Below are positions 697 to 40,100 of a stretch of DNA of 64,000 nt, in pieces (positions within the stretch are counted from its first letter, which is position 1; each line of letters opens with the position of its first letter). Below the pieces are notes generated by a model. It saw nothing but the letters and a program-made list of their open reading frames with translations. It was not told the origin of the DNA and ran no database searches. The DNA lies in the NCBI GenBank assembly GCA_964545715.1, contig CAZJHX010000029.1, forward strand, positions 6,215-70,214, read 5' to 3'. The translations under genes and the position numbers were made by a program. The stretch is from an uncultured Myxococcales bacterium. GTDB taxonomy: Bacteria > Myxococcota_A > UBA9042 > GCA-2863065.

Positions 697-760
697 ACAG
701 TATCCGGGCGAGACCTTAACACACCGCTGTGTACGGCCACGAGCACTATATGGATCGAAA

Positions 761-3060: not shown

Positions 3061-3162
3061 TCAGCTACTCCTGAAAACAACGCGAGAGGGGCCACACGAA
3101 CGCGCAGACCTTAGCATATAGGGCGTCATTTGTCCAGCCCTGATCGCGGCCCTGCAACGCGT

Positions 3163-5399: not shown

Positions 5400-5432
5400 A
5401 GCGCGGCATTTTACACGACCAGGCGACCCAAA

Positions 5433-10100: not shown

Positions 10101-13100
10101 GCTGGCGGCGCTGGCGGACAAGGCGCTGGCCGCGCTCAGTGCGGCGACCACCGCGACCAGCACGCAGATTCGGCGCACCGTCGCGCGGCTGCTGCGCCCG
10201 TTGAAAGACGCGGGCCAAGCACTGACGACGATGCTGGCCGACGGGGACGCGCAGGTCCGGCGCACGGCGGCGCATGCGGTCGGTGAGCTGGGCTACGCGG
10301 ACGCCCTGGCCGGCCTCTTTGTGCTGGTGCGCGACGGCGATGCCGACGTCCGGGCGGCGGCCGTGCTGGCGACCGCTCAGCTGAAGGGGTCGCGGTATAC
10401 GGTTGGGCGCGCGATGGCCGATCCGGCCTCCGACGTGCGCGGCGTGTCGCGCAAAGCCCTGGAGGTCCTCGGCCAGCCCGCGACTGAAGACGAGCTGGCG
10501 ATCGCGGACGCCGTAGGCCGCGGGGACGTGGACGCCGCCGCCGAGGCCGGCGAGCTGGGCCACGCCATGCTGGCACACGCGCTGACCACCCGGCGCGCAT
10601 CGCCGGCGTACAAAGCCAAGGTCTGCGCGCGCCTGTTGGGCTCCGCGCTCCCCGACTCCCTGGATGCGCTGGCCCTGGCCCTGGAGACCGGCGAGCAGGA
10701 CGTGGCGGTCGCGGCGGCCGAGGCGCTGGCGGATCCGTGCGCCGCGCAGTACTGGGACCGCATCGCTGCGATGACGCCCTTTGGCCGCGGCCCGGTGCGC
10801 GCCGCGGCGCTTCACGCTCTGGGCGGCATCGACCCCAAAAAGGCCGCGAGCGCGCTTATCGAGGGCGCCGCCGACCTTGAGCCCATCGTGCGCGTGCGCT
10901 CCACACAGGCGCTGGCGACCGTGAAGGGCAAGCCGTCGCAGGCGGCCCTGCTGTCGGGGTTGACTGACAAGCTGGCGCCGGTCAGGCGGGCGGCGCTGGG
11001 TTCGCTGGCCGCGCACGGCGACGGTGCGGTGATCTCACCCGTGCTGGCGCGGTTGAGCGACACGGACGGCGCCGTGGTGGCGGCGGCCAGAGCCACGGTC
11101 ACTGCGCTGGCGCCGAAAGCCCTCGCGGCTCTCATGGACGCGGTCATCACCGAGACGACGGCCGCGCGCCGGATGGCGGCGCAGGTGCTGGCCATCGACA
11201 AGAAGGCGATCGACTCGCTGGCGAGCGCCCTCCACGACGCCGATCCCCCCGTGCGCCGTCACGCGGCTGATGCGCTGGCCACGATCGGCAAGCCGGTGCT
11301 CAAGAACGACCGCGCGGTCGCGGCGCTGACCCAGTGCATCTGGGATGAGAGCTCCATGGTCCGCGCCGCCGCGGTCCGGTGCATGGGCGTGATCGGCGCC
11401 AAGAGCGCTGCCGTGGTGGGCGCCCTGGCGGATCAGGACGACACGGCCCGCGAAGAGGCCGGCACGGCGGTTCGCGCGCTCAAGCTGAAGACCTCCGCGG
11501 AGCTGATCAACGCGGCGGAGACGCTGCCGGTGGGCCTGAAGCTCGCCCCGGCGCTGGACCTGCGGGCCGAGGGTGTGCCGCTGGTCGGCCATGCGGTTCG
11601 GACCTACCGCGGCCTGCAGGACGAGAAGCTGGCGGCCATGGCGGCCATGGGCGAGATGCACGCCGCCGAGGCCATCGAGGTGCTGGTGGTCGGCCTGCGG
11701 TTCGACCTGGCCGAGATGCGTGTGGAGGCCGGCAAGGCGCTGGACGGCCACCCGCACGTCAAAGCCGCGACCGAAGCGCTGGTCGAGGCGACGCAGGACA
11801 GCGATGCGAGAGTCCGCGCGCTGGCGCTGAGCGCGCTGTCCGGGGCGGACGCGAAGATCGCGATCCCGCTGCTCGAGGCCGCGCTGCACAGCCCCGAAAA
11901 CGGGGTCCGTGAGGCAGCCGCGCGCTCGTTGGGGCGGATCCCCAAGGCCAGCCCGGGCCCGCTGGTGGCCGTGCTCTCCGATCGGGTCCCCGAGGTCCGT
12001 CGCGCGGCCGCGCGATCCCTGGGCGCTCTGGAGAAGGGCAGCGACGCGGTCACCGAGCTGCTACAGCGCTTTGAGGACGACGACCAGCAAGTGCGGGAGG
12101 CGGCGGTCGCGTCGCTGGCCGACCTGATCGAGGGCGCGCGGCAGACTCTGATCGACGCGATCGGCACCGGCTCTCCCGAGCTGCGCCGCAACGCGGTCCG
12201 GGCGCTTAGTGGTGACAAGGCCGCGGCCGCGCAGCTGATCGAGTGTCTGCACGACGGCGACACCGCCATTCGCTTGAGCGCCGTGCGCGCCGTGGGCCGA
12301 CTGGGCATCGACGCGATCGAGCCGGTGGTCTCTCTGCTGCACGACGAGGACGCGGAGGTGCGCAGCGACGCGGCGGTTGCGCTGGGACGCCTGAAGGGCC
12401 CGGCGGCGGTGCTGATCGGGGCGCTGGCGGACCAGGATACCGGGGTCCGGATCGGCGCCGGCGGCGCGCTGCACGCCCTGGGCACGCAGCCCACGGCCGC
12501 CCAGCAGGACGCGGCGCGTGGACTGCGCGAGCGTCAGCTGTTCAAGGCGACCGACCTGGCCGACGATGGAACCGCGCTGATCGCACACGTGCTGTGGAAC
12601 GACCTGGCAGGCGGGCTGGTGTGGCGCCGCTCCCTGGCCACGGCGCTGTCGGGTCGCCAAGATCCGGTGGCGATGACCGCGCTGGCGGGCGCAACCACGG
12701 ACACCGACCCGGCCATGCGCGTGCTGGCGTGCCAGGGGCTCGGCCATCCCGCCGCCAAGCCATGGTCTCCGGCGCTGCTGGAGGCGTGTCGGGACCCGGC
12801 CGCCGAAGTCCGCCAGGCGGCGCTGTTGGCGGTGGCCGCATCCACGCCCGTCGACGGCGCCGGCGTCATGCTGGCTGGTCTGAGCGATCCCGACGGCGCG
12901 GTGCGGGCGACGGCCGCGACTGCGCTGGGCAACGCGCGCTGCATGGACGCGCTCAACCGGCTGGCGACAGCGGTTCAGGGCGCGGATCCGTTGCTTGCGG
13001 CCGCTGCGGCAGAGGCGATCGGCAGCATGGGCCCCGAGGCGCTGCCGACCCTGAGAGAGGCGCTGAAGACGGATCGGGTGGACGTGCGCCTGGCGGCCAT

Positions 13101-16100
13101 CCGCGGACTGGCGCTGCAACCGGACGCGGTGCCCGACCTGACCGCATGTCTGGACGATCCCGATGAGACCGTTCGCGCCACCGCGGCCGATGCGCTCACC
13201 GAGCCTGCCGACGCGACCCTGACGCGCCTTATCGCCTTGACGTCGACCGATCCGGACGCCGGTGTTCGGGCGGCGGCCGTGCGCGCCCTGGGTCGCAGCA
13301 AGGACGACGCCGTCCGGGCGCCGATTATGAGCGCGCTGGGTGACCGCGCCCCGCAGGTCCAGCGCGCGGCCGGTGAGTGTCTGCGCCCCGAGGACGCCGG
13401 CATCGCCCCGGTGCCGGCGTGGATCAACCACGTCTTCTGGGACCGCTTGATCGGTCTGGGCGAGCCGGTCATCGCCGCGCTCGTGCGCGTGGCGGCGCAG
13501 CCGGCGGAGGATGACGGCGGCAAGCGCGCGGGCGCCGTACGGGCGCTGGTCAGCGTGGCGACGGCGGGCGGTGATCAGAAGGTCAGCGCAGGCGCACGTG
13601 ATGAAGTCATCGACGCGCTGCGCGGCCATCTGGACGATAGGACGGTCGCGGTGCGGCACGCGGCCGCGCTGGGCCTGGGGGCGCTGCAGGACAAGGCGTC
13701 GATCGGGTCACTGGCCATGCGCTTTGGCCGAGCGGATGACGCCGACCGACGCGTGCTGGCACAGGCGCTGGCCATTTTGGAGGCGGCCGAGGCCCTGGCG
13801 GCGGCCGTGACCGACGAGGACTCCGAGGTCCGACTGGCGGCGGCGCGCGGCGTGACCGCCCCGAGCCACCTGAGCACGCTGCTGGCGGACGCGGTCGCCG
13901 ACGTGCGCGCGGCGGCGGCTGACCGCATGGCGGCGCTGGGCCTGTTGGACGAGCTGCAGCGGGCCGCGGGCGACCAACAGGCCATGGTGCGACAGGCGGC
14001 GGTGTGGGGTTTGGGCGGTGTCGGGGGCAAGGCGGAGAAGACGCTGCTGCCGATGCTGGCCGATGCGGACGCCCGGGTGCGCCTGGCCGCGGTCGACGCC
14101 TGTGCCCGTCTGGCGCTTGTGGGGTCCGCCGAGACGATCGCCGGGCTACTGACCACCGACACCGCCGACGGCGTCCGCATGGAGGCGGCGCGCGCGTTGG
14201 AGACGCTGGCTGCGGGACGCAAGCCCAAGAAAGGCGAGAGGGACCCGGCGGCGTGGGCGCTGGAGCTGGCGCTGGTCGATCAAGACGCCGATGTGGGTCG
14301 GGCGGCGACCGCGGTGATGCACGCGCTCGGCCTCTCGCCGGCGTCCACAACGGCCGCCATCGCCGACGCGGTGTTGTACGAGCGGTGGCGCAAGCTGCCC
14401 GAGATCGGGCTGGACATCGTGCCGTTCTGCGCGCGCATTCTGGCCGAGAAGAACCTGGATCCGCGCTCCGTAGGACGCCGGACCGGAGCGGCCGTCGCCC
14501 TGGGGGATCTGGAAGATGCCGCCGCATTTGACGCCCTGGCGCACGCGGCTGGTGATGGTGCGACCCGGGTGCGCGAGGCCGTCGCGTACGCTGTAGGCCG
14601 GCTTGGGGAGCCCCGCGCTGCCGAGGTGCTGGCCGATCTGATGACCGACCCCAACCCAGCGGTTCGCGAAGCGGTCTGCCGCGGTTGTCGACCGCAGGGT
14701 GGCGAGGCGGTCGTCGCGATCTTGTCCAGCCTGATGGAAGACGCCGAGCGGGCGGTCCGCATCGCTGCCTGTGTCGCGCTGGCCGGACCCAAGACCTTCG
14801 CGCTGGACAAGGTTGTGGAGATGCTCACCGACCGTGAGCCCGAGGTCCGAATCAAGGCTGCAGGGCTCATCGCGGAGATGGGCGACCCGGCGGGAATTCA
14901 GCCGCTGATCGACGCGCTGGGCGACGCGTACGCCCATGTTCGCTACCACGTGCGCAAGGCGCTGCTGGCGCTGGGTTGGACGCCGGTCGGGTACAAGCAC
15001 GACGCGGACGACAAGGGCTATGCGGTCTGGACCAGCCACGGCGAGTGGGACGGCCGCGCCGAGGGCCCGTCCGAGCGGCTGATGCTGGAGGCGGGGCTCA
15101 GCGATCCCAACCCGGTCGTGCGACGAACGGCGGCCGAGGGCCTGGCGGAGCTGGGCGACGTGAGCAGCGCGGAGGCGCTGACGGCCGTGCTGACCGACCC
15201 GGACCGAGACGTGCGGCGGGTTGCGGCGCGCGCGCTGGAGTCGCTGGCCGCGACTCCTCCGTCTCGCGAGCTGCTGGCGGTTCAGTTGGTGGAGATCGGA
15301 AAGATCGCGGAGGCGGTCAATCAGTGTGGCGACGCGGCCGTGGCGCCGCTCGTGCGCGCACTGGCCGAGACTGACGACGGACCGCGCGCAGCGGCCGCGT
15401 GGGGCATTGGGCTGCTCAGCCTGGCCGAGGCGGGCGACGCCGGGACCGACGCCCTGAGGGCCGCTCTTGTCGACGCCGGGCCGGGCGTGCGACAGCAGGC
15501 GACTGAGGCGTTGGGGCGGCTGGGCGCCCAGGTGGCGGCAGCCGATATCGCCGAACGCCTGGCGGACGATGACGCGTCTGTCAGAGGGGCGGCGACCACC
15601 GCGCTGCTGGCCCTGGGCACCGACGGCACGGAGCAGCTCTTCGGCGGTTTGAGCGCGGAGTCCTCGCTGGCCCGGGCAGCGGCGGCGGAAGGCGTCAGCG
15701 CGCTGAAGACCGGGGCCAAGACCGCCGAAGCGCGCCTGATCGAGCTGCTGAGCACTGACCCCGGACACGCGGTCCGGGCGGCGGCTGCAGCGGCGATCGC
15801 GGAGATCCCGACGGATCCGGCTGCCCAGGCGCTGGGCGCGGCGCTGGCGGCGGACGACTCCGAGGTCGTGCGCGCTCGCATCATCGCGGCGCTGGACGCC
15901 AACACGCAGGAGGGCGCGAGCGGCCTGAGCCCGGCTCACGACGCCGTTCAGCCGGCTCTCATCGGGGCTTTGAGCGACGAGTTCGGCTCGATTCGAGAGG
16001 CGGCCCTGAAGGTGCTGCAGGCCGTCGGCTGGACTCCCGAGGGCCCGGAGATCCAGGCAGCGATGCTGATCGCCAAGGGCGACTGGCGCGGTGTCGTCGC

Positions 16101-22100: not shown

Positions 22101-25100
22101 CGGCATCTCCGCGCCCGTCGAGGAGAAGCCGGCTCCGGCGAAGGACAAGCCGTCCAAGAAAGCTGAGAAGCCCGAGGTCGAGTCGGAGGCGGCAGAGGCA
22201 GAGGCGGTCCCGGTGGCGGAGCCGGATCCAGGCCCGGACGCGGCGACCCGGGCGGCGCTGGCGATGGTCGCGCTGGGCCGCATGGATGATGCCGGCGCGA
22301 TCGGCGTGCCGTCGGTGGGTCCGCTGGTACGCGCCGTCGCGGAGCACGATGAGTTTGAGCGACAGCTGGCCGCGCAGGCGCTGGGCACGCTGGCGCATCG
22401 TCTGTTGGATGGTGTCGGCAACGATGTCGATACGGCCACGCCGGTCCTGACCGAGATCGCCGCGGGTCTGGCGGTGGGCGTGACCGACGCCGCCGCCGCA
22501 GTGCGCCTGGCCAGCGCTCTGGCTTTGGGCCGCCTCACGCACGCGCAGCACGCGACCGATGCCCTTGTGACCGGCCTCGGGGACGGCGATGCGCTGGTGC
22601 GGCAACAGGCCGCAACGTCGCTGACCCAGCTCGGAGCGTCCGGGGGCGACGCCCTGAACGGCTGCCTGGACAGCGACGCGGCCTGGGTGCGCGAGGCGGC
22701 GCTGGGCGGCCTGCATTTGATAGCAGAGGTCGCCGACGCGGAGGCGGTCGCCCGCCTGCTGCGAGCGGATCCGGTCACCGCTGTGCGCGCAGCCGCAGCG
22801 ACCACGCTGGGCGCCTGCGGAGCGGGCGGCGCAGAGCACCTGACCGCAGCATTGAGCGCCGATCACGACCCCATCGTTCGGGCCACCGCGGCGGTCGCGC
22901 TGGCTGACTGTGTCGCGGACGATACCGGCGCAACGGCAGCGGCGCAGAAGGCGCTGATCGGCGCGCTGGGCGACCGGTTCGGACGAGTCCGTACCGCCGT
23001 ACTCCAGTCACTGCACGCTATCGGCTGGGAGCCGGAGGGCCCGATGGCCGAGGCGCTCGTCGCCCTGGCGCAGCAGGACTGGCAGACCCTGGGTACGTTG
23101 GGCGATGCCGCCATCCCGATGCTGGCGCCGGTAGTCGCCGAGCGGGGCGCGGACATGCCGAGCATGGACCGGCGCATTGGCGCGCTTCGAGCGCTGGCGC
23201 AGATCGGCGGTGGCCAGACCGCGACGGCGCTGGAGCAGGGCTTGAGCGACGAGCAGGCGCTGGTCCGGGTGGCGGCGGCCAAAGCGATCGCCTGGCGCCA
23301 TACACACGCCGCCCCATCCGCGCGTCCAACGCTGCGTGAGCTGCTGGTCTCGGACCCGATCTCGCTGGTTCGGGTCGCGGCGGCGACCGCGCTCGGCGCG
23401 CTGGGCGACAACGACGCCGTGGGCATCCTGCGCGCGGCGGCAGAGGGCGACCGGGATGTCACCGTGCGCTTCGCGGCGGCCGAGGCGCTGGCGTCACCCG
23501 CTATCCGCGAGACGTCTTTCTTGTGCGAGCGATTGGGCGATCCGGAGGCGGCGGCCCGTGCGGCGGCTGCCGAGGCGCTGGGCAAGAGCGACGACCCGAC
23601 AGCGATCGACCCGCTGATCGGCGCCCTCGGGGACGCGGTTGCGGTCGTCCGCGATGCGGCGCAGCGCGCCCTTGAGACGCTGGGCTGGATGCCGCTCGGC
23701 GTTCGCGCGGATGTCGCACACGGCAGCTACTCCCGCTGGGCCCTGCGCGGCGAGCTGGAGCAGCGCACGGGCGTCGGCGACGATCAAAGAAAGGCGCTGG
23801 CGGTGGACATGCGCTCGGACGACGCGGCGATCCGGCGCTGCGCTGTCGAGGCGTTGGGCCGGTGGAAGGACCCCGCGCAGGCCAAGCTGCTGGTGCCGCT
23901 GCTGGACGACTCCAGCCGGTTCGTACGCGCGGAGGCCGCCGTCTCACTGGCGCTGATCAATGCGCTGCCCACTGAGGGCCGCGATGGGGCGCTGGCCTGT
24001 GTCGCCCAGGGCCGGATGAGCGACGCAGCCGCGCTAGGTAGTGTCGCCGGCAAGGCCTTGTCGCGCGCGGTCGTGGAGCACGCCCTCGATGAGCGGGTCG
24101 CAGCGGCCGGCGCGCTGGCCTCGCTGACGGCAAAAGACGGACAGGAGGCGCTGGCTTCAGCCCTGGGAGACGAGGTCGCAGTCGTTCGGTTGACCGCGGC
24201 GGACGCGCTGGGAGCGCTGAAGGCCGGCGTGGACGCGCTGAGCGCCGCGCTGGTAGATCCGGCAGCCAATGTCCGACGAGCTACCGGGGCCGCCCTGGCC
24301 GCCTGCGAAAAGGCCGGACTCAAGGCGCTGATCGCTGCGTGCGGACACGACGATCCCAACGCACGCCAAGCAGCGTGTCACGGTCTGGGCGCCACGACGG
24401 GCGGCGGGCAAGCGCTGGCGTCGGTACTGACGGGCGATACCGTGCCGCGGGTGCGCCTGGCAGCGGCCGTGGCGCTGGGCCGGGCCGTGGATGCCAAGAC
24501 CGGGGCGCCGGCGTTGGTGAGCGCGCTGAACAACGACAGCGCCAGCGCCGTTCGCGAGGCGGCTGCGCGAGCACTGGCGGCCTACGACCAGAAGGCGGCG
24601 CAGGACCCGCTGATCGCGTCGCTCGGCGACCCGTCCACAACGGTCAGGCAGACCGCGCTGGACGCGCTGGCGACACTGGGTTGGACCCCCGAGGACGACC
24701 TGGCCGCCGCCGTAGTTGCGCTCGCGCAGGAGAGCTGGCGCGCGCTGGGTGCGCTGGGCGAGATCGCGGTCCCGATGCTGGCGCGGGTCGTCGAAGAGAC
24801 CGGAACCGACATCGGCGGCGTCGACCGCCGGGTGGGCGCGCTCTCGGCGCTGGCGCGGATTGGGACGCCCGCGGCCGTCGCGGCGGCCGAGGCCGGACTA
24901 AAGGACATCGCGGGTCCGGCGCTGGGAGAGGCCGCCCGAGCGATGGGGCGATGCCGAGACCATGTCAGCACCGACGCGCTGCCGCGATTGCGCGCGCTGC
25001 TGAGCGACCCGCGAACCAACGTGCGGGTGGAAGCGGCCGTCGCGCTGGGGCAAATCGGCGACGCGGACGCCGTCGCGGCGCTCTCGACCTTGTGCGTGGA

Positions 25101-28100
25101 CGATCCCGAGGTGGATGTGCGCTTCGCCGCGTCGACCGCGCTTGCGAGCCCACGCCTGAAGCAGACGGGCTTCCTGGTCGACCAGCTGTCGTCGGCGGAC
25201 GACGCGGTGCGGGCAGCCGCGTGCCACGCGCTCGGGGCCAGCGAAGATCCCGAGGTGATCGACCCGCTGATCGGCGCGCTGGGCGACGCGGTCGCCGGCG
25301 TACGCGCCGCAGCAACACGCGCGGTCGAGCAGCTGGGATGGACGCCCATCGGCGTGCGACCGACGCCGGAGCACGTCGGGTACTCCCGCTGGCTGCTGCG
25401 GTCGGAGCTGCGGAGCAAGCACGGCGACAAGCCCCAGGTGGAGTTGCTGGCGCTGGAGCTGAACGACCCGGATCCCGCCGCAAGGCGGTCGGCCCTGGAG
25501 GCGCTCGGGCGGGCGGGAGCGCACGAAACAGAGGCGCTGATCCTGGCGCTGCTGGACGATCCGAACCGGTACGTGCGCACCCAGGCAGCGCATGCGCTGG
25601 CCAGCCTGGACCGCGCGCCGGCCGTCCCTGCCGACTTCCTCGGGGTGGCGCCGGCGGCCGATGAGCCGGACAAGAAGAAGAAGAAGAAGAAGAAGAAGGG
25701 CAAGAAGGACGAGCCACCGCCCGAGGTGGCGGGACCGCCGCAGGCAGCCATCGACGCCGCGCTGAGCCTTGTCGCGACAGGCCGAATGAGCGAAGCCGCG
25801 CGCCTGGGGATCGTGGCGATCGGGCCGCTGGCCAGAGCGCTGGCGGAGCACACGAGCGACCAGCGCCTGAATGCGGCCGTCGCGCTGGGTGAGCTGGCGC
25901 TGCGGATCCGGACAGACGCGGGAGCGGACGGGGCGGAGGCAGCCGCGCCGGTCCTGTCAGAGATCGCAACTGGACTGCAGGCTGGGCTCGCAGACGACCA
26001 GCTTGAGGTGCGGGTCGCCACCGCCGCGGCGCTCGGCCAGGCAGGCCCGACGCCGGCCGCCACAAAGGCGCTGACCGGCGGATTGGCCGACGGCGAGCAG
26101 GCGGTGCGAGCGGAGAGCGCGCGTGCCCTGGCCGGCCTCGGCGGCGCAGGCGCCGAGGCGCTCACCGCATGCCTGGATGATGCGAACGCCCGTGTACGTG
26201 AGGCGGCGGTCCACGGGCTGGATGCTCAGGGCGGCGAGCTGGACGGCGCTCGGCTCACACAGCTGCTGGCGTCGGACGACAGCGCGCTGGTCCGGGTGGC
26301 TGCAGCCCAGGCGTTGGCGGGCCTACCGTCCGCGGCCGAGCCGCTGATCACGGCGCTGGCCGGGGATCCCCATGAGCTGGTGCGTGCTGCCGCCGCCACA
26401 TCGCTTGCCGCGCACAAAGCGGGAGACGCCGGACAAAACGCGCTGCTGGGCGCCCTGGCCGACCGCTATTCTGAGGTCCGAGAGGCCGCCCTGGGCGGGT
26501 TGGAGGCGACCGGCTGGCGCGCCGAGGGTCCGATCGCCGAGGCGATGGTGGCGCTGGCCGCTGAGAGCTGGCGCGCGCTGGCGAGCCTGGGAGAGACGGC
26601 GCTGCCGATGCTGGCGCAGGTCGTGGGGGAGCGCGGAGCAGAGGCTCCCGATGTCGAGCGCCGCATCGGGGCGCTGCGCGCGCTGGCGGAGATCGACGGC
26701 GGCGCGGCGATGGCGATCGTCGAGCGCGGCCTGTCGGATGAGCACGCCCGAGGCCGAGCGGCGGCGGCCAAGGGCATTGCGTGGCGTCATGCGGCCACGC
26801 CGGCGTCGGCATGTGGCGTGCTTCGGGAGCTGCTCTCCTCCGACTCCAACGCGGGTGTGCGGATCGCCGCGGCGACCGCGCTGGGCGCCCTGGGCGACAA
26901 AGAGGCTGTCGGGCTGCTGAGAACAGCCGCGGAGCACGATCGCGACCCGACGGTCCGCTTCGCTGCGGCCGAGGCGCTGGCATCACCCGCTATCAAAGAG
27001 ACGTCCTTCCTCATCGGCAGACTCAGCGACGCCGACGGCGCCGTCCGTGCAGCGGCGGCCGAGGCGCTGGGCAAGTCGGATGACGTCGAGGCGATCGACC
27101 CGCTGATCGGCGCGCTGGGCGACGCGGTCGCGATCGTGCGCGACGCGGCGCAGCGGTCGCTACAACAGCTTGGCTGGGTGCCGTTGGGCGTCTTCGGAGA
27201 CCTGGCGGACACCGGCTTCGCGCGCTGGGCCACGCGCGCCGAGGTCGCGGCGCGGACGGGCGTCACCGGCGACCAGAAGAAGGCGCTGACCGCAGACTTG
27301 AAGGACTCGCAGGCGCTGATCCGGCGTGCCGCTATCCAGGCGATGGGCCGCTGGAAGGACCCTGCGCTTTACGCGGTCGTTCTACCGCTGCTGGACGACG
27401 CGGATCATCACGTCCGAGCGGAGGCCGCGGAGGCGCTCCCGCTGTTGGGCGAGCCGCCGGAGAGCGGACGGGACGGCGCGCTGCGGCTGGTGGCGCTGGG
27501 ACGCATGGCAGAGGCGGCAGCTCTGGGCGACATCTCAGCGCCGGGTCTGGCGCGCGCGCTGCAGGAGAACCTGGAGCCCGAGCGGGCGGCCGCCGCGGAG
27601 GCATTGGGTGGCCTCTCGGCCAAGACGTCGACGGCCCCCCTGAGCGCTGCGCTGGCCGACGCGTCGTCGGCCGTTCGGCTGGCGGCGGCCCAGGCGCTGG
27701 GACAGTTGAAGACGGGAGTCGACGCCCTGGCCGGTGCGCTGGGTGACACCGGCGCCGACGTCCGGACAGCCGCTGCTCTGGCCCTTGCACAGTGCGGCAA
27801 GGACGGCGCACAGGCGCTGGCGAAGGGGTGTGCCGCGACGGACGCCGCGCTCAGAGCAGCCGCATGCGTCGGGTTGGGCGCTACCGCGGACGCGAAGCAC
27901 GCCGGCACGCTGGCGACCCGGCTCGGCGACGATACCGACAAGGCGGTTCGAGAGGCTGCCGCCAACGCGCTGGCCGCGTGCGTCGACGCCAAGACCGGCG
28001 CCGCCGCGCTTGCGAAGGCGTTGGATGCAGATGAGAGCGCCACCGTACGCAATGCGGCCGCGCGAGCGCTGGGCGCGTACCCGGCCAAGGCGGCGCAGGA

Positions 28101-31100
28101 GCCCCTGATCGCCGCGCTCAGCGACGGGTCACGGGGCGTGCGTCAGACCGTATTGGCCGCGCTGTCCGGGCTTGGCTGGGCGCCCGAGTCGGACGTGGCG
28201 GCGGCCGTCGTGGCGTTGGCGCGCGAAGACTGGCCGGCGCTGGGGCGCCTGGGCGACGCGGCGACGCCAATCCTGGCGCGCGTCGTGCGCGAGACCGGCA
28301 CGGACATCGGCAGCGTGGATCGCCGTGTGGGCGCGATCCAGGCGCTGGCCGCGGTGGGCGACAAAGCGGCCGCCGCGGCGGTCGAGCCGGGGTTGAGCGA
28401 CATCGCGGGGCCGGTGCTGGCAGCGGCGTCACGGGCTACCGGACGCTGTGCCGCGCATGCACCCAAATCGGCGCGTCCGACGCTGCGAGCGCTGCTGGAG
28501 GACGCACGCGAGGCGGTCCGGGTAGAGGCGGCGGTCGCGCTGGGCCAGCTGGGCGACGTCGACGCGGTGCCCGCGCTGTCCGAGCTGGCGCTGAACGACG
28601 AGAACGACCAGGTGCGACTGGCCGCGTCGACCGCGCTGGCCAGCAAGACGCTGAAGCAGACGGGCTTCCTGGTGGGGCAGCTGGCGTCAGCTGACGAAGA
28701 CGGCCGGGCAGCCGCGTGTCATGTGCTGGGCGACAGCGAGGACCCGGAGGTCATCGATCCGCTGATCGGGGCGCTGGGCGACGCGGTGGCACGAGTGCGC
28801 GCCGCCGCGACAAGTGCGCTGGAGAAGCTGGGTTGGACGCCGATCGGCGTTCGCGCCGACGTAGAAGACGCCGGGTACTCGCGCTGGCTGCTGCGGGCGG
28901 AGCTGCAGACGCTGCACGGCAAGGGCAAGCCACAGATCGACCTGCTGCGGCCACAGTTGAAGGCGCCGGACGCGCCGGCGAGGCGCTGCGCCATCGAGAC
29001 GATCGCGCGCGCTGCGATGGCAGCGGCAGCGCCCGACGTGACAGTGCTCCTGGACGACGCCCATTGGGCGGTACGGCGCGAGGCGGCGCAGGCCCTGATC
29101 GCCCTGGGAGCGCTGCCGGACGCGGCGCCGCACTTCTTCCTGGCCGATGCGCCGCCGGCGGCAGAGACAAAGCCCAAGAAGAAGGGCAAGAAGGGCACGA
29201 AGTCCGAGAAGCCGGCGGCGGACCCGGCGATCGACGCGATCACGCGGGACACCGTCCTGGCCCTGGTGGCGCTGAACCGCATGGACGAGGCGGCCGGTTA
29301 CGGCGTGGCGGCGATCGATGCCTTGACCCGCGCCGTTCGAGAGCCGCCCGCCGAAGAGCGCGAGAGCGCTGCGGTCGCATTGGGCGGCCTGGGTGCGAGG
29401 GCGCGGCGCGAGGCGCCCGAGGCGAGTGCACAGGTACTGTCGCGCGTGTCAGCAGGGCTGGCGCACAGCGCAGCCGACCGCGTCGTAGACGTGCGATTGG
29501 CCAGCGTCGGCGCGCTGGCCGCGCTGGGCGACGCGGCGGGTGTCGCGGACACCCTGACGCGCACGGTGGCGGATCTCGATCCCGCCGTCCGCGCACAGAG
29601 CGCCACAGCCCTGGCCGCGATGGGGGACAGCGGCGCCACCGCCCTTGGCGGCTGCCTGGCCGACGAGCGAGCGGTCGTCCGGGCTGCGGCTGTGCGCGGA
29701 CTGGGCGCCCTGCCCGCCGAGAGTATCGACGCGGCTGCGGTAGCCGCCGTGCTCAATGCCGACGTCAGCCCGACCGTACGCGCGGCCGCCGCAGCCACGC
29801 TCGGGGGCGTGGGCGCCTCACAGCTACAGGCCTTGTACAGCGCGCTTCAGCAGGATGCGGACGAGGCCGTCCGGGCGGCTGCTGCCGACGCCGTGGGCGC
29901 GGCTGCGGGAGCCGATCCGGGCGCGGTCGGAGAGGCGCAGCGGGCGCTGATCGCGGCGCTGGGCGACCGATACGCCGCGGTCCGAGAGGCGGCGCTCACT
30001 GCGCTGCATGCGATTGGCTGGCGCGCAGAGGGCCCCCTGGCGGAGGCGCTCGTGGCGCTGGCGCAGCAAGACTGGAAGGGCCTGGCCGCGATCGGCGCCC
30101 CGGCGATCCCGCTCCTGGCTCAGGTCGCCGCAGAGCGTGGAGCAGACGCGCCCAGCGTCCAGCGCCGGATCGGCGCATTGGAGGCCTTGGCGGCCGTCGG
30201 TGGGCCGGACACAGCGCCGGCGCTGGAGCGCTGCCTCGCAGACGAGCATGCGCTCGTGCGGGCAGCCGCGGCGCGGGGGATCGCGTACCGTCACGCCGAT
30301 GCGGCCGAGTCCGTCCGCCCGGTACTGCGCACGCTGCTCGTAGAAGATCCGCTGGCCACCGTGCGGGTCGGCGCCGCGATCGCGCTGGGTGCGCTGGGCG
30401 ATAAGGACGCGGTGGGGCTCCTGCGGACGGCTGCAGCCGATGATCCCGAGCCCACCGTGCGATTCGCGGCCGCGGAAGCGCTGGCGTCGCCGGCGATCAA
30501 GGAGACCAGCTTCCTGATCGAGCGGCTGACGGACGCGCAGGCGGAGACGCGGATGGCCGCCGCCGACGCGCTCGGCCGCAGCGACGACACGCGGGCGATC
30601 GACCCGCTGATCGCGGCGATGGGCGACGCGGACGCGGGTGTGCGCGACGCCGCCACTCGTGCCCTGGAGCAGCTGGGCTGGATGCCGCTTGGCGTACGCG
30701 GCGCGGTCGGCGACGTGGGTTACTCGCGCTGGGCCACGCGCGGAGAGACCGAGACGCGCACGGGCACGACGGACCAGAAGGCGGCGCTGACGAAGGACCT
30801 GAGCGATCCGTCCGCAGGCGTGCGGCGCTGCGCCGTGGAGGCCCTCGGGCGGTGGAAGGACGAGGCCCTGTTCGCGACGGTGCTTCCGATGCTGCACGAC
30901 GCGGACCGGCACGTCCGGACGGAGGCGGCCATCGCGCTGGCGCTGCTCGGCCAGGCCCCGACCGACGGGCGAGACGGCGCGCTTACGGCCGTCGCGTTGG
31001 GCCGCATGAGCGAGGCGGCGGCGCTGGGCGATGCGGCCGGACCGGCGCTGTCGCGTGCCGCGCTGGAGCACGATGACGACGAGCGGGTCGATGCGGTGAC

Positions 31101-34100
31101 CGCGCTCGGCGCGCTGTCGACCGACGCGGCTGAGACGGCGTTGAGCGCGGCCCTGACGGACGCGGTAGATGCGGTCCGCCTGGCCGCCGCGCGCTCTCTC
31201 GGGCGCCTGGCCGCCGGAGTCCCAGCGCTGACCGCGACGCTGGCGGACGGGAACGCAGCCGTCCGAAACGCCGCGGCGAGCGCGCTGGCGGACTGCGGAG
31301 CGGCGGGCTGGAAGGCTCTGGAGGCGGGCTGCGACCGCGACGAGGACGCCGCGCGCGAGGCCGCGTGCGTTGGATTAGGCGCAACCGGCGACGCCAAGGC
31401 GGGAGCTCGGCTTGCGCAGCGCTTGAGCTCTGACTCGGCGGCCGCGGTGCGGCTGGCAGCGGCGCGCGCGCTGGGCCTGGCGGTCGACGCAAAAGCCGGT
31501 GCGGCGGCGTTGGTCAGCGCCCTGGCCGGCGATGACAGCAGCGATGTCCGGCTGGCGTCGGCGCTGGCCCTGGCACCGTACGGACCCAAGGTGGCCGAGA
31601 CGCCCCTGATCGACTCGCTGGCCGATGCGTCCCGCCGAGTGCGTGAGGGGGCCCTGCAAACCCTGGCGCAGCTGGGCTGGATGCCTCAAGACGAGATGGC
31701 GGAGGCCGTCGTGGCGTTGGCCAAAGAGGATTGGCCGGGCCTGGCGCGCGTTGGCGAGACGGCGATTCCGATTCTGAGTCGGGTCGTACGCGAGGCCGGC
31801 AAAGACGCGGGCAGCGTGGACCGGCGTGTCGGCGCGATCGTGGCGCTGTCATCCATGGGCAGCAAGAGCGCGCTCGCAGCCGTCGACGCGGCGCTGCTGG
31901 ATGTGGCCGGACCCGTGCTTGTGGCGGCCTCACGCGCGCTCGGGCGTCACAGCGCGCTCGCGAGCGCGGCCGCGCGACCAAAGCTGCGGTCGCTGCTGGA
32001 CGACCCGCGCAAGGCCGTTCGCATCGAAGCAGCCGTGGCGCTGGGCCAGATCGGCGACGGCGACGCAGTGCCGAAGCTGACCGAGCTGTGCACCGAGGAT
32101 CCCGAGGCAGAGGTTCAGCTGGCCGCCTCCACGGCTCTTGCCAGCCCGACGCTTAAGCAGACGGACTTCCTGGTCGGGCAGCTGTCGTCGCCCACCGTGG
32201 CGGTGCGGGTTGCGGCGTGCGCGGCGCTTGGCGCCAGCGAAAACCCCGAGGTGATCGATCCGCTGATCGGCGCCCTGGGGGACGCTGTCTCGACGGTGCG
32301 TGTCGTCGCCGCTGCGGCGCTGGAGAAGCTGGGCTGGACGCCGGTCGGTGTGCGCTCAGAGATCGGCGCCGCCGGATACGGGCGCTGGCTGCTGAAGTCC
32401 GAGGCGGAGAGCGAGTTTGGCGCGGAGCGGGATCAGCGCGCGCTGCTGGCCGCGCAGCTGGGCTCGGGCGACGCGATCGCCAGGCGCGCCGCGCTGGAGG
32501 CGCTCACCCGGATCGGTGACGCAGGCGGCGCGGAGCTGGTCTACGGCTTGCTGGACGACGCGCATTGGCTGGTCCGACGCGAGGCTGCGCAGACGCTGCT
32601 AGCGCTTGGCGCCATTTCGGACGTGACACCGACCTTCTCGGGCCCGGCTGCGCCTGCAAAGCCGGCCAAGGGCAAAAAGGGCAAGACCAAGACCAAGACC
32701 AAGACCAAGACCAAAGCAGACGCGGTCGAGCCGGCGGTGCCGGAGGCGGCTCGGCGCGCCATCGCGACGTACGCGGCGCTTGGCCGCATGGATGAGGCGG
32801 CGGCCTTCGGCGTCCCGGCCATCGACGCGCTGACGCGGGCCGCGGCAGAGCAGCCGTCCGACGAGCGCATCTCGGCCTGCCGGGCCCTGGGCGCGATGGC
32901 GGTCCGGCTGCGCGCGGACGCCGGGGAGACCACTGAGCCGCTGAAAGCCCCGCTGAGCCGGTCGATCGTCGGCATGTCCGCAGCGCTGAAGCACACCGAC
33001 GCTGAAGTGCGTATCGCCGCGGCCCAGGGCCTCAGTGATACGGGTGTGGCGGAAGCGTCCGCGCCACTGACCGCAGCACTGGCGGACCCCGACTCCGCGG
33101 TGCGTTCGGGGGCGGCGGCTGCGCTGGCGACGCTGGCTCCGGCCGGACACGCGGCGCTGATCGACAGCCTGGGCAGCGACCGCGACGAGGTCAGGGAGGC
33201 CGCCCTTTGGGGTCTGCAGCCCATCGTGGCCGACGTGGACGCCGGACCGATGCTGACCGTGCTTGCCGACGACCCCGAAGACAGCGTCCGGCTGGCGGCG
33301 GCGACCGCGCTGGCCGGCAGTGGAGAGACCAGTGGGCTGATCGCGGCGCTTCACACGGACGGCGACGAGCGGGTCCGAGCGGCGGCGGCCACATCGCTGG
33401 GAACCACGTCTGGCGACGCCGCTGTGCAGGATGCGCTTATCGCGGGGCTGGCCGACCGCTACTCAGAGGTCCGCGACGCGGTGTTGGAGTCGCTGCACGC
33501 GACAGGCTGGAGGGCGGTAGGCCCCATGGCGGAGGCGCTGATCGCCCTCGCCCGCCAGGACTGGACCGAGCTTGCCGCGCTGGGCGAAGCGGGCACGCCG
33601 ATGCTGGCGCGCGTGGCTGCCGAGCGCGGAACGGACATCCCAAGCGTGCAGAGGCGGGTCGGGGCCCTGGACGCGCTGGCGACGCTCGGTGGCCCGGCGA
33701 CGGCGAGCGCCTTGGCTGCCGGCCTCTCCGACGAGCACGCGCTGGTTCGCGCCGCAGCGGCGCGCGGGCTCTCGCGGCCCGACACGGGAGCCGGCGCCGA
33801 GGTGCTGCCCGCGCTGCGCACGCTCGTGGCTACGGACCCCGTCGCCAAGGTACGCACGGCCGCGGCGACCGCCCTTGGCGCGGCCGGTGACAAAGAGGCG
33901 GTGTCGATCCTGCGGTCCGTGGCCGAGAGCGATCGCGACGCGACAGTCCGCTTTGCCGCCGCGGAGGCGCTGGCGATGCCGGCGATCCGCGAGACCTCGT
34001 TCCTGGTAACGAGGCTGTCGGACGCCTCGGCTGAGATACGCGCGGCGGCGGCTGAGTCGCTCGGTGACTGCGAAGATCCGAAGGCGATCGAGCCACTGAT

Positions 34101-37100
34101 CGGGGCGATGGGCGACGCGGACGCGCTCGTCCGTGACGCCGCCCAAAGAGCGCTGGCGAAGCTGGGCTGGATGCCGCTGGGCGTCCGCGCCGACGTCTCC
34201 GAGGTCGGCTATTCGCGTTGGGCCGGCCAAGCCGAGCTCGAGACGCGCACAGGCGTGACCGGCGACCAGGTTGGGGCTCTGCTGGTCGACGTGAAGGACG
34301 ATGACGCGCGCATCCGGCGGTGTGCGGTCGAGGCGCTGGGGCGGTGGAAGGACGCCGAGCTGTTCGCTGCAGTGCGGCCGCTGCTGGACGACAAGAACCG
34401 CTTTGTGCGGACCGAGGCGGCCATCGCGCTGGGCCTGCTAGGTGGCGCGCCGACGGCGAGCGAAGACGGCGCCCTGTCGTATGTGGCGCTGGGTCGCATG
34501 CAACAGGCGGCCGCGCTGGGAGACGTCGCGGCGCCGGCGCTGGGACGTGCCGTGCGCGAGCACGCGCTGGACGACCGAGTCGCGGCGGCCGAGGCCCTGG
34601 GTGGACTGAGCGCCAAGGCCGCTGAAGCCGCGCTGTTGGCCGGTTTGACCGATGCGGTCGCGCTGGTGCGCGCCGAGGCTGCCGCCGCGCTGGGGCGGGT
34701 CGGCGCGGGTGTCGACGGTCTCGCAACGGCGCTGAGCGACGCCTCGAGCCCGGTGCGACTGACGGCGGCCGGCGCACTGGCTGCGTGCGGCAAAGCAGGC
34801 GCTGCTGCCCTTCTGAGTGCATGCGAGAGTGAGGACGCCGGAGCACGAGCGGCGGCATGTGCGGGTCTGGCGATCGGCAAAGACCCAGAGACGGCGCCCG
34901 CGCTGGTGACGCTGCTGAGCAGCGACGCGGAGGCCGTGGTGCGCGCGTCCGCCGCGACGGCGCTGGCCGATGTGGTGGAGCCCAAAGCGGGCGGCGCGGC
35001 CCTGGCGGCGGCGCTGGCAGACGACGACGCAAGCCAAGTGCGCATCGCCGCGGCGAGCGCCCTGCAGGCGTACGGGGCCAAGGTGGCTCAGCAGCCGCTT
35101 GTCGACGCGTTGGGCGACGCGTCTCGCGGCGTGCGACGGGCGGTGCTGTCCGCGCTGTCGGCGCTCGGGTGGGCGCCCAAGGACGACCTGGCCGCCGTGA
35201 TCGTGGCGCTCGCGCGTGAGGACTGGGCGTCGCTGGCGCGCCTGGGCGAGATCGCCGTACCGATTCTGGGGCGCGTCGTCGGGGAGAAGGGCGACGATCT
35301 CGGCAGCATTGACCGCCGCGTCGGCGCGATCGAGGCCCTGTCGAGCGTCGGTACAAAGGCGGCTATCGCCGCGATCACGCCCGCTGTACGGGATGTCGCC
35401 GGGCCGGTGCTGGTCGCCGCCAGCCGAGCCCTGGGACTGAATGCCTCGCTGGCCGATCCGGCTGTGCGGCCACACCTGCGCTACCTGCTGGCGGACCCGC
35501 GCAAGAAGGTCCGAGTCGACGCCGCGGTAGCGTTGGGCCAGCTGGGCGACGAAGACGCGATCTCGAAGCTCTCGACGATGTGCGTGGACGACCCGGATCC
35601 CGAGGTGCGGCTGGCGGCGTCTTCGGCGCTCGCAAGTCCGACTCTGAAGCAGACCGGCTTCCTTGTGCAGCAGCTGCTCTCTCCGGATGCCGAGGTCCGC
35701 GCCGCGGCGTGCACGGCCCTGGGCCGCAGCGAGGACCCGGAGGTCATCGACCCGCTGATCGGCGCCATGGGCGATGCGGTGGCGCGCGTTCGCGCGGCCG
35801 CGGCGGCCGCGCTGACCGAGCTGCATTGGACGCCGGTCGGCGTGCGCGGCGAGATCGGAGATGCCGGCTACGGCCGGTGGCTGCTCAAGTCGGAGCTGGA
35901 GGCGGACCACGGCGCCGCGGACCAGCAGGCGTCGCTGCTGGGCGCCCAGCTGAAGTCGGGTGATGCGCCGGCACGACGATCCGCGCTGGAGGCGCTGGCG
36001 CGTGCGGGAGCGGATGTTGCGACCGCGGCGGTCGTGCCGCTGCTGGACGACGAGCACTGGTCGGTGCGCCGCGAAGCCGCCGAGACGCTGGCGTCGCTGG
36101 GCGTGCTGCCGCCGGCGCCGGACGGATTCTTCGGCGTCCCGAGACTGATCGAAGCACCGCCCCCGCCGGAGCCGGAGACGCCCCCGGAGGAGGAGGCGAA
36201 AAAGCCGAAGAAGGGCAAGAAAGCCAAAAAGGCGAAGAAGGCCGAGCCGGCGCCCGCTGAGCCAACCGGGGACGAGGCCCCATCGGTGCCGATGATCGTG
36301 GACATCCCGCCGGTGCCGCCCCAGGCCGGTCGTGCGGCCCTGGCGCTGGTGGCCCTGGGCCGCATGTCCGAAGCGGCGCGGCTTGGCGTACCCGCGCTGA
36401 AACCGCTGGCCCGGGCGGTGGCCGAGCAGCCGATTTCAGAGCGCCATGCCGCGGCTGAGGCGCTGAGCTGGTTGGCGATCACGCTGCGCGCGGAGGCCGG
36501 CGAGGCCGCAACCGAGGCCGTGGAGCCCCTGTTGTCCGAGGTGAGCGCCGGCCTGGCGGTCGGACTCCAGGATGACGAGACCGTCGTTAGAGTCGCTTGC
36601 GCGACGGCGCTGGGCGCCGCCGGTCAGACAGCGGGGTCTGTCGCAGCGCTGGCGGGCTCTTTGCCTGACGAGGACGAGGGCGCACGTGCGGCGGCGGCCA
36701 ACGGGCTGGCGGCCCTGGGCGAGGCCGGCGCGACCGCGCTCAACCAGGCGCTTGCGCACAAACAGGCCGTAGCACGAGCAGCGGCCGCTACTGCGCTGGC
36801 CAACGTGCCGTCCGCGGCGGACCGCGACCAGCTCAGCGCGCTGCTGGCGGGCGACGCCGACGTGTCTGTCCGCGTGTGCGCAGCCAGCGCTCTTGCGGCG
36901 ACGGGTCACGGTCCTATCGGCGTGCTGGCCGCCGCGGTGGCCGGTGATGAGGACGAGCGGGTACGAACCGCGGCGGCCGTCGGACTGGGACAGGCAGCCA
37001 CGATCGAGCCCACGGACGCCGCTGCGGCGACGGCTGCCCAGGGTGCGCTGATCAGCGCGCTGGGCGACCGCTTCTCGGACGTACGAGAGGCGGCGCTGGC

Positions 37101-40100
37101 CTCGCTGGCGCAGATCGGATGGCGGCCGGAGGGCGTGATGGCCGAGGCCCTGGTGCTGCTCGCCCGGCAGGACTTCCGCGGGCTGGGTGGGCTGGGCAAA
37201 CCGGCAACGCCGCTGCTGGTCGGCGTGGTCCGCGAGAGAGGGTCGGACCCCGCGAGCCTGGAGCGGCGGACCGGGGCGATCGATGCGCTCAGCCGGATCA
37301 GCGGCCCGGACACGGTGGCGGCGATCGAGAGCGCGCTGGCCGACGAGCACGCGCTGGTGCGCGCGGCGGCGGCGAAAGCCATCGGCCGCAGACACGCCGA
37401 TGCCGCACCCTCGGCCCGACCGATTCTGAGGGCGCTGCTGGCCAATGATGGCGTTGCCGGGGTGCGTATCGCTGCCGCCCTCGCGCTGGGGCTGCTGGGC
37501 GACATGGACGCGGTGACCCTGCTGCGCAATGCCGCCGAGCAGGACCGTGACGTGACCGTGCGCTTCGCCGCAGCGGAGGCGCTGGCGTCGCCGGCCATCA
37601 AGGAGACCACGTACCTGATCGCCAGCCTGAGCGACCCGGTCGCCGGACGGCGGGCGGCGGCCGCAGAGGCGCTGGGCGACAGCACCGACACCAGCGCGAT
37701 CGACCCGCTGATCATCGCGCTGGGCGACGCGGATGCCGGCGTACGCGACGCGGCGCAGCGCGCGCTGGAGAAGCTTGGGTGGATGCCACTGGGTGTTCGG
37801 GCCGATGTGGCTGATACCGGATATGCGCAGTGGGCTTCGCGCGCCGCTATCGAGGCACGGACCGGGACGAGCAACGACCAGAAGAAGGCGCTGGCCCTGG
37901 AGGTCAAGAGCACGGACGCCGCGGCACGGCGCTGCGCGCTGGAGGCGCTGGGGCGCTGGAAGGACGCGGCGCTCTACGACGTGGTTGTGCCGCTGCTGGA
38001 CGACGCCAACCGCCATGTCCGCGCAGAGGCGGCCATCGCGCTGGGCCTGCTGGGCGGTGCGCCGACGACGGGCGCCAACGGCGCGCTGGCGCTGGTGGCG
38101 ATGGGACGGATGCGCGAGGCGGCCGCACTTGGCGACGTCGCCGGACCAGCCTTGTCACGCGCAACTCGCGAACATCGGCTGGCCGAGCGCACGGCGGCCG
38201 CTCAGGCGCTGGGCGTGCTGAGCGCAGCCGTCGCCGAGGCGGCGCTGTGTGAGGCCATCGCGGATGATGTCGCCGAGGTGCGGCTGACCGCGGCCAGCTC
38301 GCTGGCACGGATAGGCGCCGGCGTGCCTGCGCTGTCGACCGCGCTGACCGACAGCGTTCGGCAGGTCCGATGCGCTGCTGCGGCGGCGCTGGCGCGTTGC
38401 GGCAAGGATGGCGCGGTCGCTCTCATCGGTCTGTGTGGTGCACCGACGGCTGAGGCTCGTGAGGCGGCCTGCCTCGGCCTGAGCACGGTAGATGACGCAA
38501 AAGCGGCCGCTGCGCTGGCGGAGCGGCTGGACCGCGACGACACCGCGATGGTGCGTGTCGCCGCGGCTACCGCATTGGAATCGGCCGGACCGGCGACCCG
38601 GAAAGCTGGCGGCCCGGCGCTGGTGGCGGCCCTGGACTGCGACGAGCACAGCGTGGTCCGCGCGACGGTGGCACGCGCGTTGGTCGCATATGGGGCGGGC
38701 ACGGCGCAGGAGCCGCTGATCCGCGCGCTGGGAGACAGCTCGCGAACCGTGCGCCAGCAGGTGCTGGAAGCCCTGGCGGCGCTGGGCTGGGTGCCGGCGG
38801 ACGACATGGCGACCGCGGTGGTCGCGCTGGCGCGAGAGGACTGGCCGGCGCTGGCCCGCCTCGGTGAGACGGCACTGCCGATGCTGGCGCGAGTCGTGCG
38901 CGAGCGGGGCGGCGACGCCGGCAGCGTGGATCGCCGCGTCGGAGCTGTGAACGCGCTGGCCACCATCGACGAGGCCGCGGCTGTCAGCGCGATCGAGCCC
39001 GCGCTTCAGGACGTGGCGGGGCCGGTCCTGACCGCGGCCGCGCGGGCGATCGGCTTGCGCGCAGCCGCCGCCCCATCCACGGTCATGCCGCCCCTGCGCG
39101 AGCTGCTGGGTGACCCCAGACCCAAGGTGCGCATCGAGGCGGCCGTTGCGCTGGGCCAGCTGGGTGACAGCGACTCAGTGTCCCTGTTGACGGCGCTGGC
39201 CGAGTCCGATCCGTCCGCGGAGGTGCGCCTGGCCGCCGCCGCGGCGCTGGCCAGCCCGCAGCTGAAGCAGACGGGCTTCCTGGTACAGCAGCTGGGTGCG
39301 GCGCAGCCCGATGTTCGCGAGGCGGCCTGCCGCGCACTGGGCGACAGCGAGGATCCGGACGTCATCGACCCGCTGATCGGGGCGCTGGGCGACGCGGTGG
39401 CCGCGGTGCGCGCTGCGGCATCAGCCTCCCTGGAGAAGCTGGGCTGGACGCCGCTGGGCGAGCGCGGCGAGACCGCGGACAGCGGGTACTCCCGGTGGCT
39501 GCTCAAGTCGGAGTTGGAAGCGCTGCACGGCATCGCGGGTCAGCCGCAGATCACGCTGATCGAGGCGCAGCTCGGAGCGGGAGATGCCCAGGCGCGCCGG
39601 TCCGCACTGGAAGCCCTGGCCCGGGCGGGAGCCGTACAGGCCGAGGCGGTGGTGCTCAGACTGCTGGACGATGCGGACGCGCTGGTTCGCCGAGAGGCCG
39701 CGTTGACGCTGGCGGCGCTGGGCCTGTTGCCGCAGGCGCCCGACGGACTGTTCGGGATGCCGCAGCCCGCCGCAGCCGCGGTGGCGGCCCCCGAGCCCGA
39801 GGCGGAGAAACCGGCCAAGGGCAAGAAGGCCAAGGCCAAGAAGGGCAAGAAGGCGGAGCCGGAGCCGGAGCCCGCAGCAGCCGAGCCTGAGGCGCCGGCG
39901 ATCCCGCCGGCCGCCGTGCACGCGTCTCTGGCGCTGGTCGCGCTGGGCCGAATGGATGAGGCAGCCGCGCTTGGTGTACCGGCGCTGGCGCCCCTGGTGC
40001 GCGCCATCCGAGAGCAGGTCCCGGATGAGCGACGCGCCGCGGTAATCGCGCTGGGCTCGTTAGCGACAGCTGTGGTGGAGACAGCCGGCGCGGAAGCCGG

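Follow-up and report, generated by a model that had tools for sequence, protein, structure and literature searches.

Tandem repeats in the lysine-rich spacers of a giant HEAT-repeat protein as probable by-products of slipped-strand mispairing

Analysis of a 64-kb stretch of DNA from contig CAZJHX010000029.1 (hereafter the window; G+C content 72.5%) revealed one open reading frame (ORF) of 17,353 codons, which covers 52 kb and encodes a giant HEAT-repeat protein interspersed with short lysine-rich (K-rich) segments. The in-frame tandem repeats found in these segments are probably by-products of slipped-strand mispairing in low-complexity DNA that encodes disordered, indel-tolerant K-rich spacers and a K-rich tail, and thus tolerated variation with no dedicated tuning. 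According to this explanation, the repeat-bearing DNA would encode intrinsically disordered parts of a giant acidic protein, whose segment composition, a basic core with acidic and proline flanks, would be maintained while exact sequence and length would be barely constrained. Replication slippage would repeatedly make and remove short in-frame duplications in the K-rich segments and nowhere else in the gene, selection on the 52-kb ORF would purge frameshifts and let in-frame events alone survive, and codon bias would contribute apparent microsatellites; the tracts would be mutable and their length variation tolerated. We base this explanation on the location and frame of the repeats, disorder, codon statistics, the hypervariability of paralogous linkers and one copy-number difference at the level of assemblies.

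Repeats were located by Tandem Repeats Finder (TRF) and exact matching, together with an exhaustive scan for perfect tandem tracts across the 64 kb. The giant ORF and its repeat tracts, with lengths in nucleotides (nt) and amino acids (aa), are as follows.

7120-59181, plus strand: giant ORF of 17,353 aa, HEAT repeats throughout, organized in half-modules of ~570 aa and modules of ~1,140 aa
25672-25698, plus strand: perfect (AAG)9 in linker 2, frame 0, encoding K9 and flanked by GAC and GGC
32683-32712, plus strand: perfect (AAGACC)5 in linker 4, frame 0, encoding (KT)5
32682-32714, plus strand: perfect period-6 tract of 33 nt that includes (AAGACC)5, read by TRF as (CAAGAC)5.5
43544-43578, plus strand: perfect 12-nt CCAAGAAGAAGC x2.9 in linker 7, in-frame, encoding KKKP units, 35 nt
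59068-59091 and 59092-59115, plus strand: 24-nt unit AAGGCCAAGCCCAAGGCAAAACCA x2, frame 0, followed by a third copy that matches at 21/24 bases
59068-59132, plus strand: perfect period-24 tract of 65 nt (24 nt x2.7) in the C-terminal tail

The initial annotation had placed repeats at 25672-25698, 32683-32712 and 59068-59130, and these positions are exact, all in frame 0 of the ORF at 7120-59181. Its statement that slippage would preserve the reading frame, the units being multiples of three, likewise applies to all units. The CCAAGAAGAAGC repeat was absent from its list and is the second-longest perfect tandem tract of the window. The K-rich segments, which total 759 nt or 1.2% of the window, contain all four of the longest such tracts (65, 35, 33 and 27 nt), and the fifth-longest, of 21 nt, lies outside them. 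In a dinucleotide-shuffled window, 0 matches are expected for the listed repeats. The tracts thus have the attributes of in-frame coding tandem repeats, with copies arranged head to tail, units that are multiples of 3 within an ORF, and a location in non-globular segments; most of the other linkers contain degenerate repeats alone.

Lysine-rich segments were found at seven consecutive module junctions (beginning at aa 5000, 6175, 7343, 8508, 9686, 10891 and 12127) and at the C-terminus, and hold 90 of the 461 lysines of the giant protein.

22117-22185, plus strand: K-rich linker 1, aa 5000-5022, no notable DNA repeat
25642-25734, plus strand: K-rich linker 2, aa 6175-6205, core KKKKKKKKKGKK with acidic/proline flanks, predicted disordered
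29146-29226, plus strand: K-rich linker 3, aa 7343-7369, weak (AAGAAGGGC)2.7 repeat
32641-32733, plus strand: K-rich linker 4, aa 8508-8538, carrying (AAGACC)5
36175-36264, plus strand: K-rich linker 5, aa 9686-9715, degenerate (AAGAAGGCC)4 repeat
39790-39876, plus strand: K-rich linker 6, aa 10891-10919, 15-nt x2.5 and (CGGAGC)3.2 repeats
43498-43608, plus strand: K-rich linker 7, aa 12127-12163, carrying the 12-nt x2.9 repeat
59044-59178, plus strand: K/A/P-rich C-terminal tail, aa 17309-17353, (KAKP)n-like, reading AKAKAKPKAKPKAKPKAKPKAKPKAKAKPKAKAKPKGKKK

The internal segments consist of a basic core between acidic and proline flanks, for example AADEPD-KKKKKKKKKGKK-DEPPPE in linker 2. Such spacers are confined to the seven junctions between aa 4994 and 12181, and the last four junctions (aa 13263, 14404, 15533 and 16660; nt about 46906-57100) have 0-19 non-basic residues instead of a K-rich spacer. 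In an alignment of six junctions, identity of the flanks to the first sequence was 47-55% (averaging 63% over columns), while the core was gap-ridden and could not be aligned; overall, the paralogous linkers range in length from 0 to about 60 aa and share no common motif. An AlphaFold model built on this alignment (mean predicted local distance difference test score, pLDDT, 81) placed aa 6176-6204 below a pLDDT of 50 and without secondary structure between flanks modelled as confident helical repeats, and thus predicts linker 2 to be disordered. As the internal sites lie at module junctions, with cores that are unalignable and predicted to be disordered, we consider "linker" a fair term for them. 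The initial annotation had assigned all of its repeats to linkers, which is borne out for (AAG)9 and (AAGACC)5, both in K-rich linkers, while the site at 59068 belongs to the C-terminal tail. Candidate roles for the basic cores are the binding of polyanions or of the protein's own acidic HEAT surfaces.

A signal at the level of DNA had to be separated from peptide composition and codon bias. Within the ORF, Lys is encoded by AAG (83%) and AAA (17%), Thr mainly by ACC (43%) and ACG (44%), and GCA and CCA account for only 8% of Ala and 5% of Pro codons, respectively. With linker amino acids fixed, codons were redrawn 20,000 times from the usage of the gene, and each draw was scored for a perfect tract of at least the observed length. 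This procedure bears on an explanation without any slippage, in which periodic K, KT and KAKP motifs would be selected in the protein and written in preferred codons, so that the periodicity of the DNA would be merely apparent. In line with it, codon usage in the linkers equals that of the gene, and a K9 run combined with 83% AAG fully accounts for (AAG)9, which the resampling reproduced readily (P=0.22). The (AAG)9 tract is therefore expected and carries no independent DNA sign of slippage, even if it may have grown in this way, and under so strong a codon bias any lysine run resembles a microsatellite. For (AAGACC)5, ACC was used five times though ACG is equally common in the gene, and the tract was mildly non-random (P=0.022). 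The initial annotation had treated both tracts as slippage microsatellites, a view that finds mild support for (AAGACC)5 and none from the codons of (AAG)9. The 12-nt CCAAGAAGAAGC repeat reached P=0.05, and values for the remaining linkers ranged from 0.2 to 0.98.

The clearest departure from codon bias was obtained for the 24-nt AAGGCCAAGCCCAAGGCAAAACCA repeat (P=0.002). Its unit duplicates the rare codons GCA, AAA and CCA exactly, and simple arithmetic from the codon frequencies of the gene gives a chance of ~3e-5 for a codon-identical second KAKPKAKP. The 24-nt duplication is clearly a recent event at the DNA level, as the initial annotation had proposed. A comparable case was found in relative A (L004 + L015, ENA NODE_5826, 40.6 kb; 59% identity), whose one internal K-rich spacer within the available sequence carries a perfect 18-nt duplication of its own: GACAAGACGGCCAAGAAA occurs twice and as a further partial copy, and again includes the rarer AAA codon. 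These exact copies, together with the missing common motif among paralogous linkers, speak against selection on the peptide as the sole cause: the codon-identical copies refute it at the 24-nt site, it is possible only for (AAG)9, and as a general account we consider it very unlikely. Duplication at the DNA level is needed for the longer-unit repeats alone.

Exact look-ups of the flanking proteins led to five further assemblies from this population, none being identical to the window: an ENA scaffold of 76.6 kb (L001, SAMN10231912), two JGI sequences of 78.6 kb (L002, 3300008954) and 14 kb (L003, 3300007512), two scaffolds from SAMN10231911 (L012 and L013, the latter scaffold_1791) and the Logan assembly of SRR8062322 (L014). 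Relative to the window, L001 and L002 showed 4 and 3 substitutions over 14.8 kb and L003 one over 7.6 kb, and each of the three showed a single 24-nt gap and no other indel, containing three perfect copies of the 24-nt unit versus two in the window. L012, which spans window positions 1-15019, differed by 2 substitutions and 0 indels. Across ~30 kb of comparable DNA that is 99.97-99.99% identical, the sole indel thus falls in the 24-nt tract. The initial annotation had anticipated length differences between related genomes, and the difference of 2 versus 3 copies agrees with this for the 24-nt site, subject to a possible artefact. In L013 a 100-N scaffold gap (L013 9692-9791) lies inside the same tract, and in L014, which matches the window with 100% identity over 4.9 kb, the contig begins (position 1) inside it, so that short-read assemblers evidently fail to traverse the tract reliably. 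By reasoning, every k-mer (k <= 66) of the two-copy allele also occurs in three-copy reads, and a shortest-path traversal could yield the version seen in the window. The length difference is consistent with a real polymorphism, if short of proof, and the copy number of the 24-nt repeat is probably polymorphic in the population. The tract therefore offers a testable marker of strain variation and is at the same time a point at which short-read assemblies of the giant gene break or may collapse; published 24-nt copy numbers, that of the window included, need spanning reads before they are trusted.

The giant gene was called at 17,361 aa in L001 and L002 versus 17,353 aa in the window, and gene callers place its start at window position 7120 (L012). 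As one additional 24-nt unit accounts for the 8 aa of excess, all other repeats, including (AAG)9 and (AAGACC)5, together show zero net change in length in both of these independent assemblies. This argument from net length has low power, because the populations are 2-3 substitutions per 10 kb apart and consensus assemblies mask minority alleles, and it lends no support to rapid variation. The same two calls, made by two pipelines, led us to reject the idea that the giant ORF is an assembly chimera. No further copy of the (AAG)9 region was recovered: a scan of metagenomes, for which the query was a stretch of 2,500 aa covering linkers 2-4, returned no relative, the exact 24-nt DNA pattern flanking (AAG)9 gave 0 matches in metagenome contigs, and a scan of genome contigs for the module that separates linker 2 from linker 3 produced a single spurious match in Clostridia. 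Protein searches with linker-spanning and C-terminal queries returned no near-identical fragments, and an exact look-up of the partial product of L003 found no entry in the protein collection; the giant protein and its contig-cut fragments are evidently not indexed. In L013, where the N-gap interrupts the giant ORF, antisense ORFs of 519, 436, 340 and 934 aa are called at L013 2028-9429 (window about 51460-58860, minus strand). Such calls arise as artefacts from the GC-rich antisense frames and could contaminate protein databases.

Comparison with relatives extended the analysis to longer timescales. The pair of a giant gene and a downstream gene of ~1,580 aa is kept in two relatives (59% and 53% identity). 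The downstream gene of the window is the following.

59182-63918, plus strand: HEAT gene of 1,578 aa that starts with GTG immediately behind the TAA stop (59179), in frame with the giant ORF

The gene junctions of the relatives differ from one another, with an ATGA overlap in one (L004 about 10001) and TAG plus 24 nt in the other (L007 9974-10001). A recent nonsense mutation at 59179 that split a longer gene was considered and rejected, since a conserved gene pair with different junctions indicates a genuine stop. In relative A the complete giant gene encodes just 7,878 aa within the same neighbourhood, including a downstream gene with 59% identity and the same 514-aa and MoeA neighbours; with 7,878 versus 17,353 aa, the number of modules differs more than two-fold between relatives. 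The C-terminal tails of both relatives are K-rich and unrelated in sequence. Among 18 more distant HEAT homologues (29-44% identity), 0 K-rich linkers were found, and the linkers are thus specific to a narrow clade. Composition is thus conserved within this clade, while sequence, length and repeats turn over.

In all three lineages the tail's last lysine codons make up an AAGAAG/AAGGA(G) run, which lies a few bases ahead of the start of the downstream gene. This Shine-Dalgarno-like purine run suggests translational coupling to the downstream gene, and it is the observation behind a reading in which AAG runs serve as Shine-Dalgarno-like elements in the RNA, for coupling at the tail and internal initiation at the linkers, with repetitiveness being secondary. 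The likeness is one of sequence only, the internal linkers have no obvious start at Shine-Dalgarno distance, and the 24-nt repeat, 50-110 nt upstream of the start, is left unexplained, so that we regard a role of this kind as extremely improbable for the repeats.

The initial annotation had gone further and proposed a built-in mechanism for rapid and reversible tuning. In its general form, this describes adaptive in-frame contingency repeats, whose frequent reversible slippage would vary linker length and charge between cells and diversify scaffold geometry or binding. The concentration of repeats in linkers, the difference of exactly one unit at one site between near-identical assemblies and the independent perfect duplication in the linker of a relative would all fit, and in-frame triplet indels affecting simple sequence repeats (SSRs) have phenotypic effects in Mycobacterium tuberculosis (PMC13596474). 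Set against these points are the zero net length change at (AAG)9, (AAGACC)5 and other sites in two further assemblies, and the two relatives with 3-4 samples each, in which 0-2 substitutions and 0 indels were counted over 10-18 kb, in stretches without long perfect repeats. Moreover, the other linkers hold mostly degenerate repeats, in contrast to contingency tracts that are maintained. Tract length is small, with 2-3 copies for long units and 5-9 for short ones, the protein is apparently cytoplasmic, unlike the usual surface-exposed targets, and the one observed polymorphism may be an artefact. We therefore consider adaptive contingency repeats unlikely, and the proposed tuning mechanism is unsupported. 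Equally little credence, or slightly less, is given to the spacers and tail being in-frame variable-number tandem repeats (VNTRs) that truly vary in natural populations of this uncultured marine Myxococcota-like bacterium. If true, a free-living non-pathogen would show cell-to-cell variation in the spacer length and charge of a cytoplasmic scaffold of more than 17,000 residues, a "rheostat" of protein geometry that differs from on/off phase variation.

Several points weigh against tolerated slippage, the explanation that we prefer. Both slippage as the cause and neutrality, that is, the lack of selection on length, are what we infer from the patterns described above. Selection for lysine, acting on point substitutions, could have produced (AAG)9 with no slippage involved, and the difference of 2 versus 3 copies may be an assembly artefact caused by de Bruijn collapse. 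Furthermore, a K-rich composition recurs in seven linkers and in the tails of three lineages, indicating that the segments do something, and their length could matter.

The host protein is of interest in its own right. In profile searches against Pfam and NCBIfam, all parts of the giant ORF matched HEAT-repeat profiles and no other family, and a single module matched HEAT_2 (PF13646) with E=2.8e-102 over 11 stretches, above the gathering threshold, which places it in the HEAT family. Self-comparison resolved half-modules of ~570 aa of two alternating types, forming ~1,140-aa modules, and modules in the same phase share 52-57% identity. The protein is very acidic (Ala 24%, net charge -522), and an AlphaFold2 model of a portion of it is a helical solenoid. 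By hydropathy scan alone, no transmembrane (TM)-like segment and no N-terminal hydrophobic stretch were detected, and the protein appears to be cytoplasmic and not of the surface-exposed type. The motif "GWTPVGVR...GYSRWLLRSEL", a conserved non-HEAT insert, recurs in each half-module (for example at aa 6072-6096, nt about 25333-25407) and also in the 1,578-aa protein (59182-63918), and AlphaFold modelled it as a small beta-hairpin with low confidence. The nearest named homologue of the flanking MoeA comes from a Myxococcota metagenome-assembled genome (65% identity), and the source of the giant protein is probably an uncultured bacterium of the Myxococcota.

Two further genes in this neighbourhood were recorded. 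A gene of ~514 aa without a Pfam match, divergent from the giant gene, lies at window 5433-6977 (minus strand), L012 8043-9587, L015 5127-6668 and L016 406-1950; in every relative seen it lies next to the giant gene or to MoeA, and its product may be a functional partner of the giant protein. The other, an ORF at window 2125-3060 (minus strand) upstream of the giant gene, contains a Phage_base_V / VgrG-type OB domain (E=3.6e-17). It lies between a MatE transporter gene and an ORF without a Pfam match that precedes MoeA, and is also found near MoeA in the relative L016.

That disordered linkers of biased composition harbour in-frame slippage repeats is textbook knowledge for bacterial repeat proteins, and as a known phenomenon the finding alone matters little. 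The Xr region of Staphylococcus aureus protein A, a surface protein, is a 24-bp in-frame VNTR used for spa typing, with 2-15 or more copies and documented variation between strains. It shares with the window the 24-nt unit, the non-globular spacer region and frame-preserving slippage, whereas the window has 2-3 copies and variation was seen between assemblies only. Lysine-rich repeat tails are further known from Bordetella BpH1, the KPAA repeats of Pseudomonas AlgP and the PAKK tails of mycobacterial HupB. In Chlamydia trachomatis Hc2 (hctB), lysine-rich repeats vary in size between strains through duplication and deletion of units (PMC2848022). Tails of this type and the tail of the window are both K/A/P-rich oligopeptide tandem repeats derived from in-frame DNA repeats. 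The Hc2-type proteins, however, are small DNA-binding nucleoid proteins in which the repeat is the functional domain, whereas the window has a 45-aa tail and ~30-aa spacers on an acidic protein of 17,353 aa; no HU/H1 domain was found in it by Pfam or NCBIfam, so that it does not belong to the small nucleoid proteins.

The closest parallel for (AAG)9 are the in-frame triplet SSRs of M. tuberculosis ponA1 (proline run) and ppe53 (alanine run), for which variation across thousands of isolates, homoplasy and phenotypes have been reported (PMC13596474). As in the window, a trinucleotide repeat in a GC-rich genome encodes a homopeptide, and slippage by whole codons keeps the frame. The two cases differ in that no variation was shown at (AAG)9, and in the host, a giant HEAT scaffold here and a cell-wall or secreted protein there. 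More generally, it is established that protein regions of low complexity show in-frame SSR/VNTR variation (PMC13596474, PMC2848022). The contingency loci of Haemophilus, Neisseria, Helicobacter and Campylobacter are based mostly on frame-shifting units of 1, 2, 4 or 5 nt that switch expression on and off, with long tracts, surface or host-interaction genes and proven heterogeneity within clones (PMC2651432, PMC4081817). They share with the window the mechanism of slipped-strand mispairing and SSRs within coding sequence. In the window all units are multiples of 3 inside an ORF and cannot shift the frame, and the target is a HEAT-only protein with no TM-like segment in the hydropathy scan; its repeats are not a classical contingency locus.

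The protein itself finds its counterpart in the giant HEAT-containing proteins of Omnitrophota termed "Archaeovorins", and Myxococcota are listed among the phyla rich in very large genes (bioRxiv 10.1101/2023.11.21.568195). Like the protein of the window, the Archaeovorins exceed 10,000 aa, contain many HEAT_2 domains and were recovered from metagenomes (bioRxiv 10.1101/2023.11.21.568195). In contrast to the Archaeovorins, which are multi-domain, partly extracellular and equipped with TM segments, the protein of the window is HEAT-only, shows no TM-like segment and is composed of ~1,140-aa modules with K-rich spacers. A HEAT-only protein of 17,353 aa is very unusual and a more interesting object than the repeats, whose linkers mark its module boundaries.

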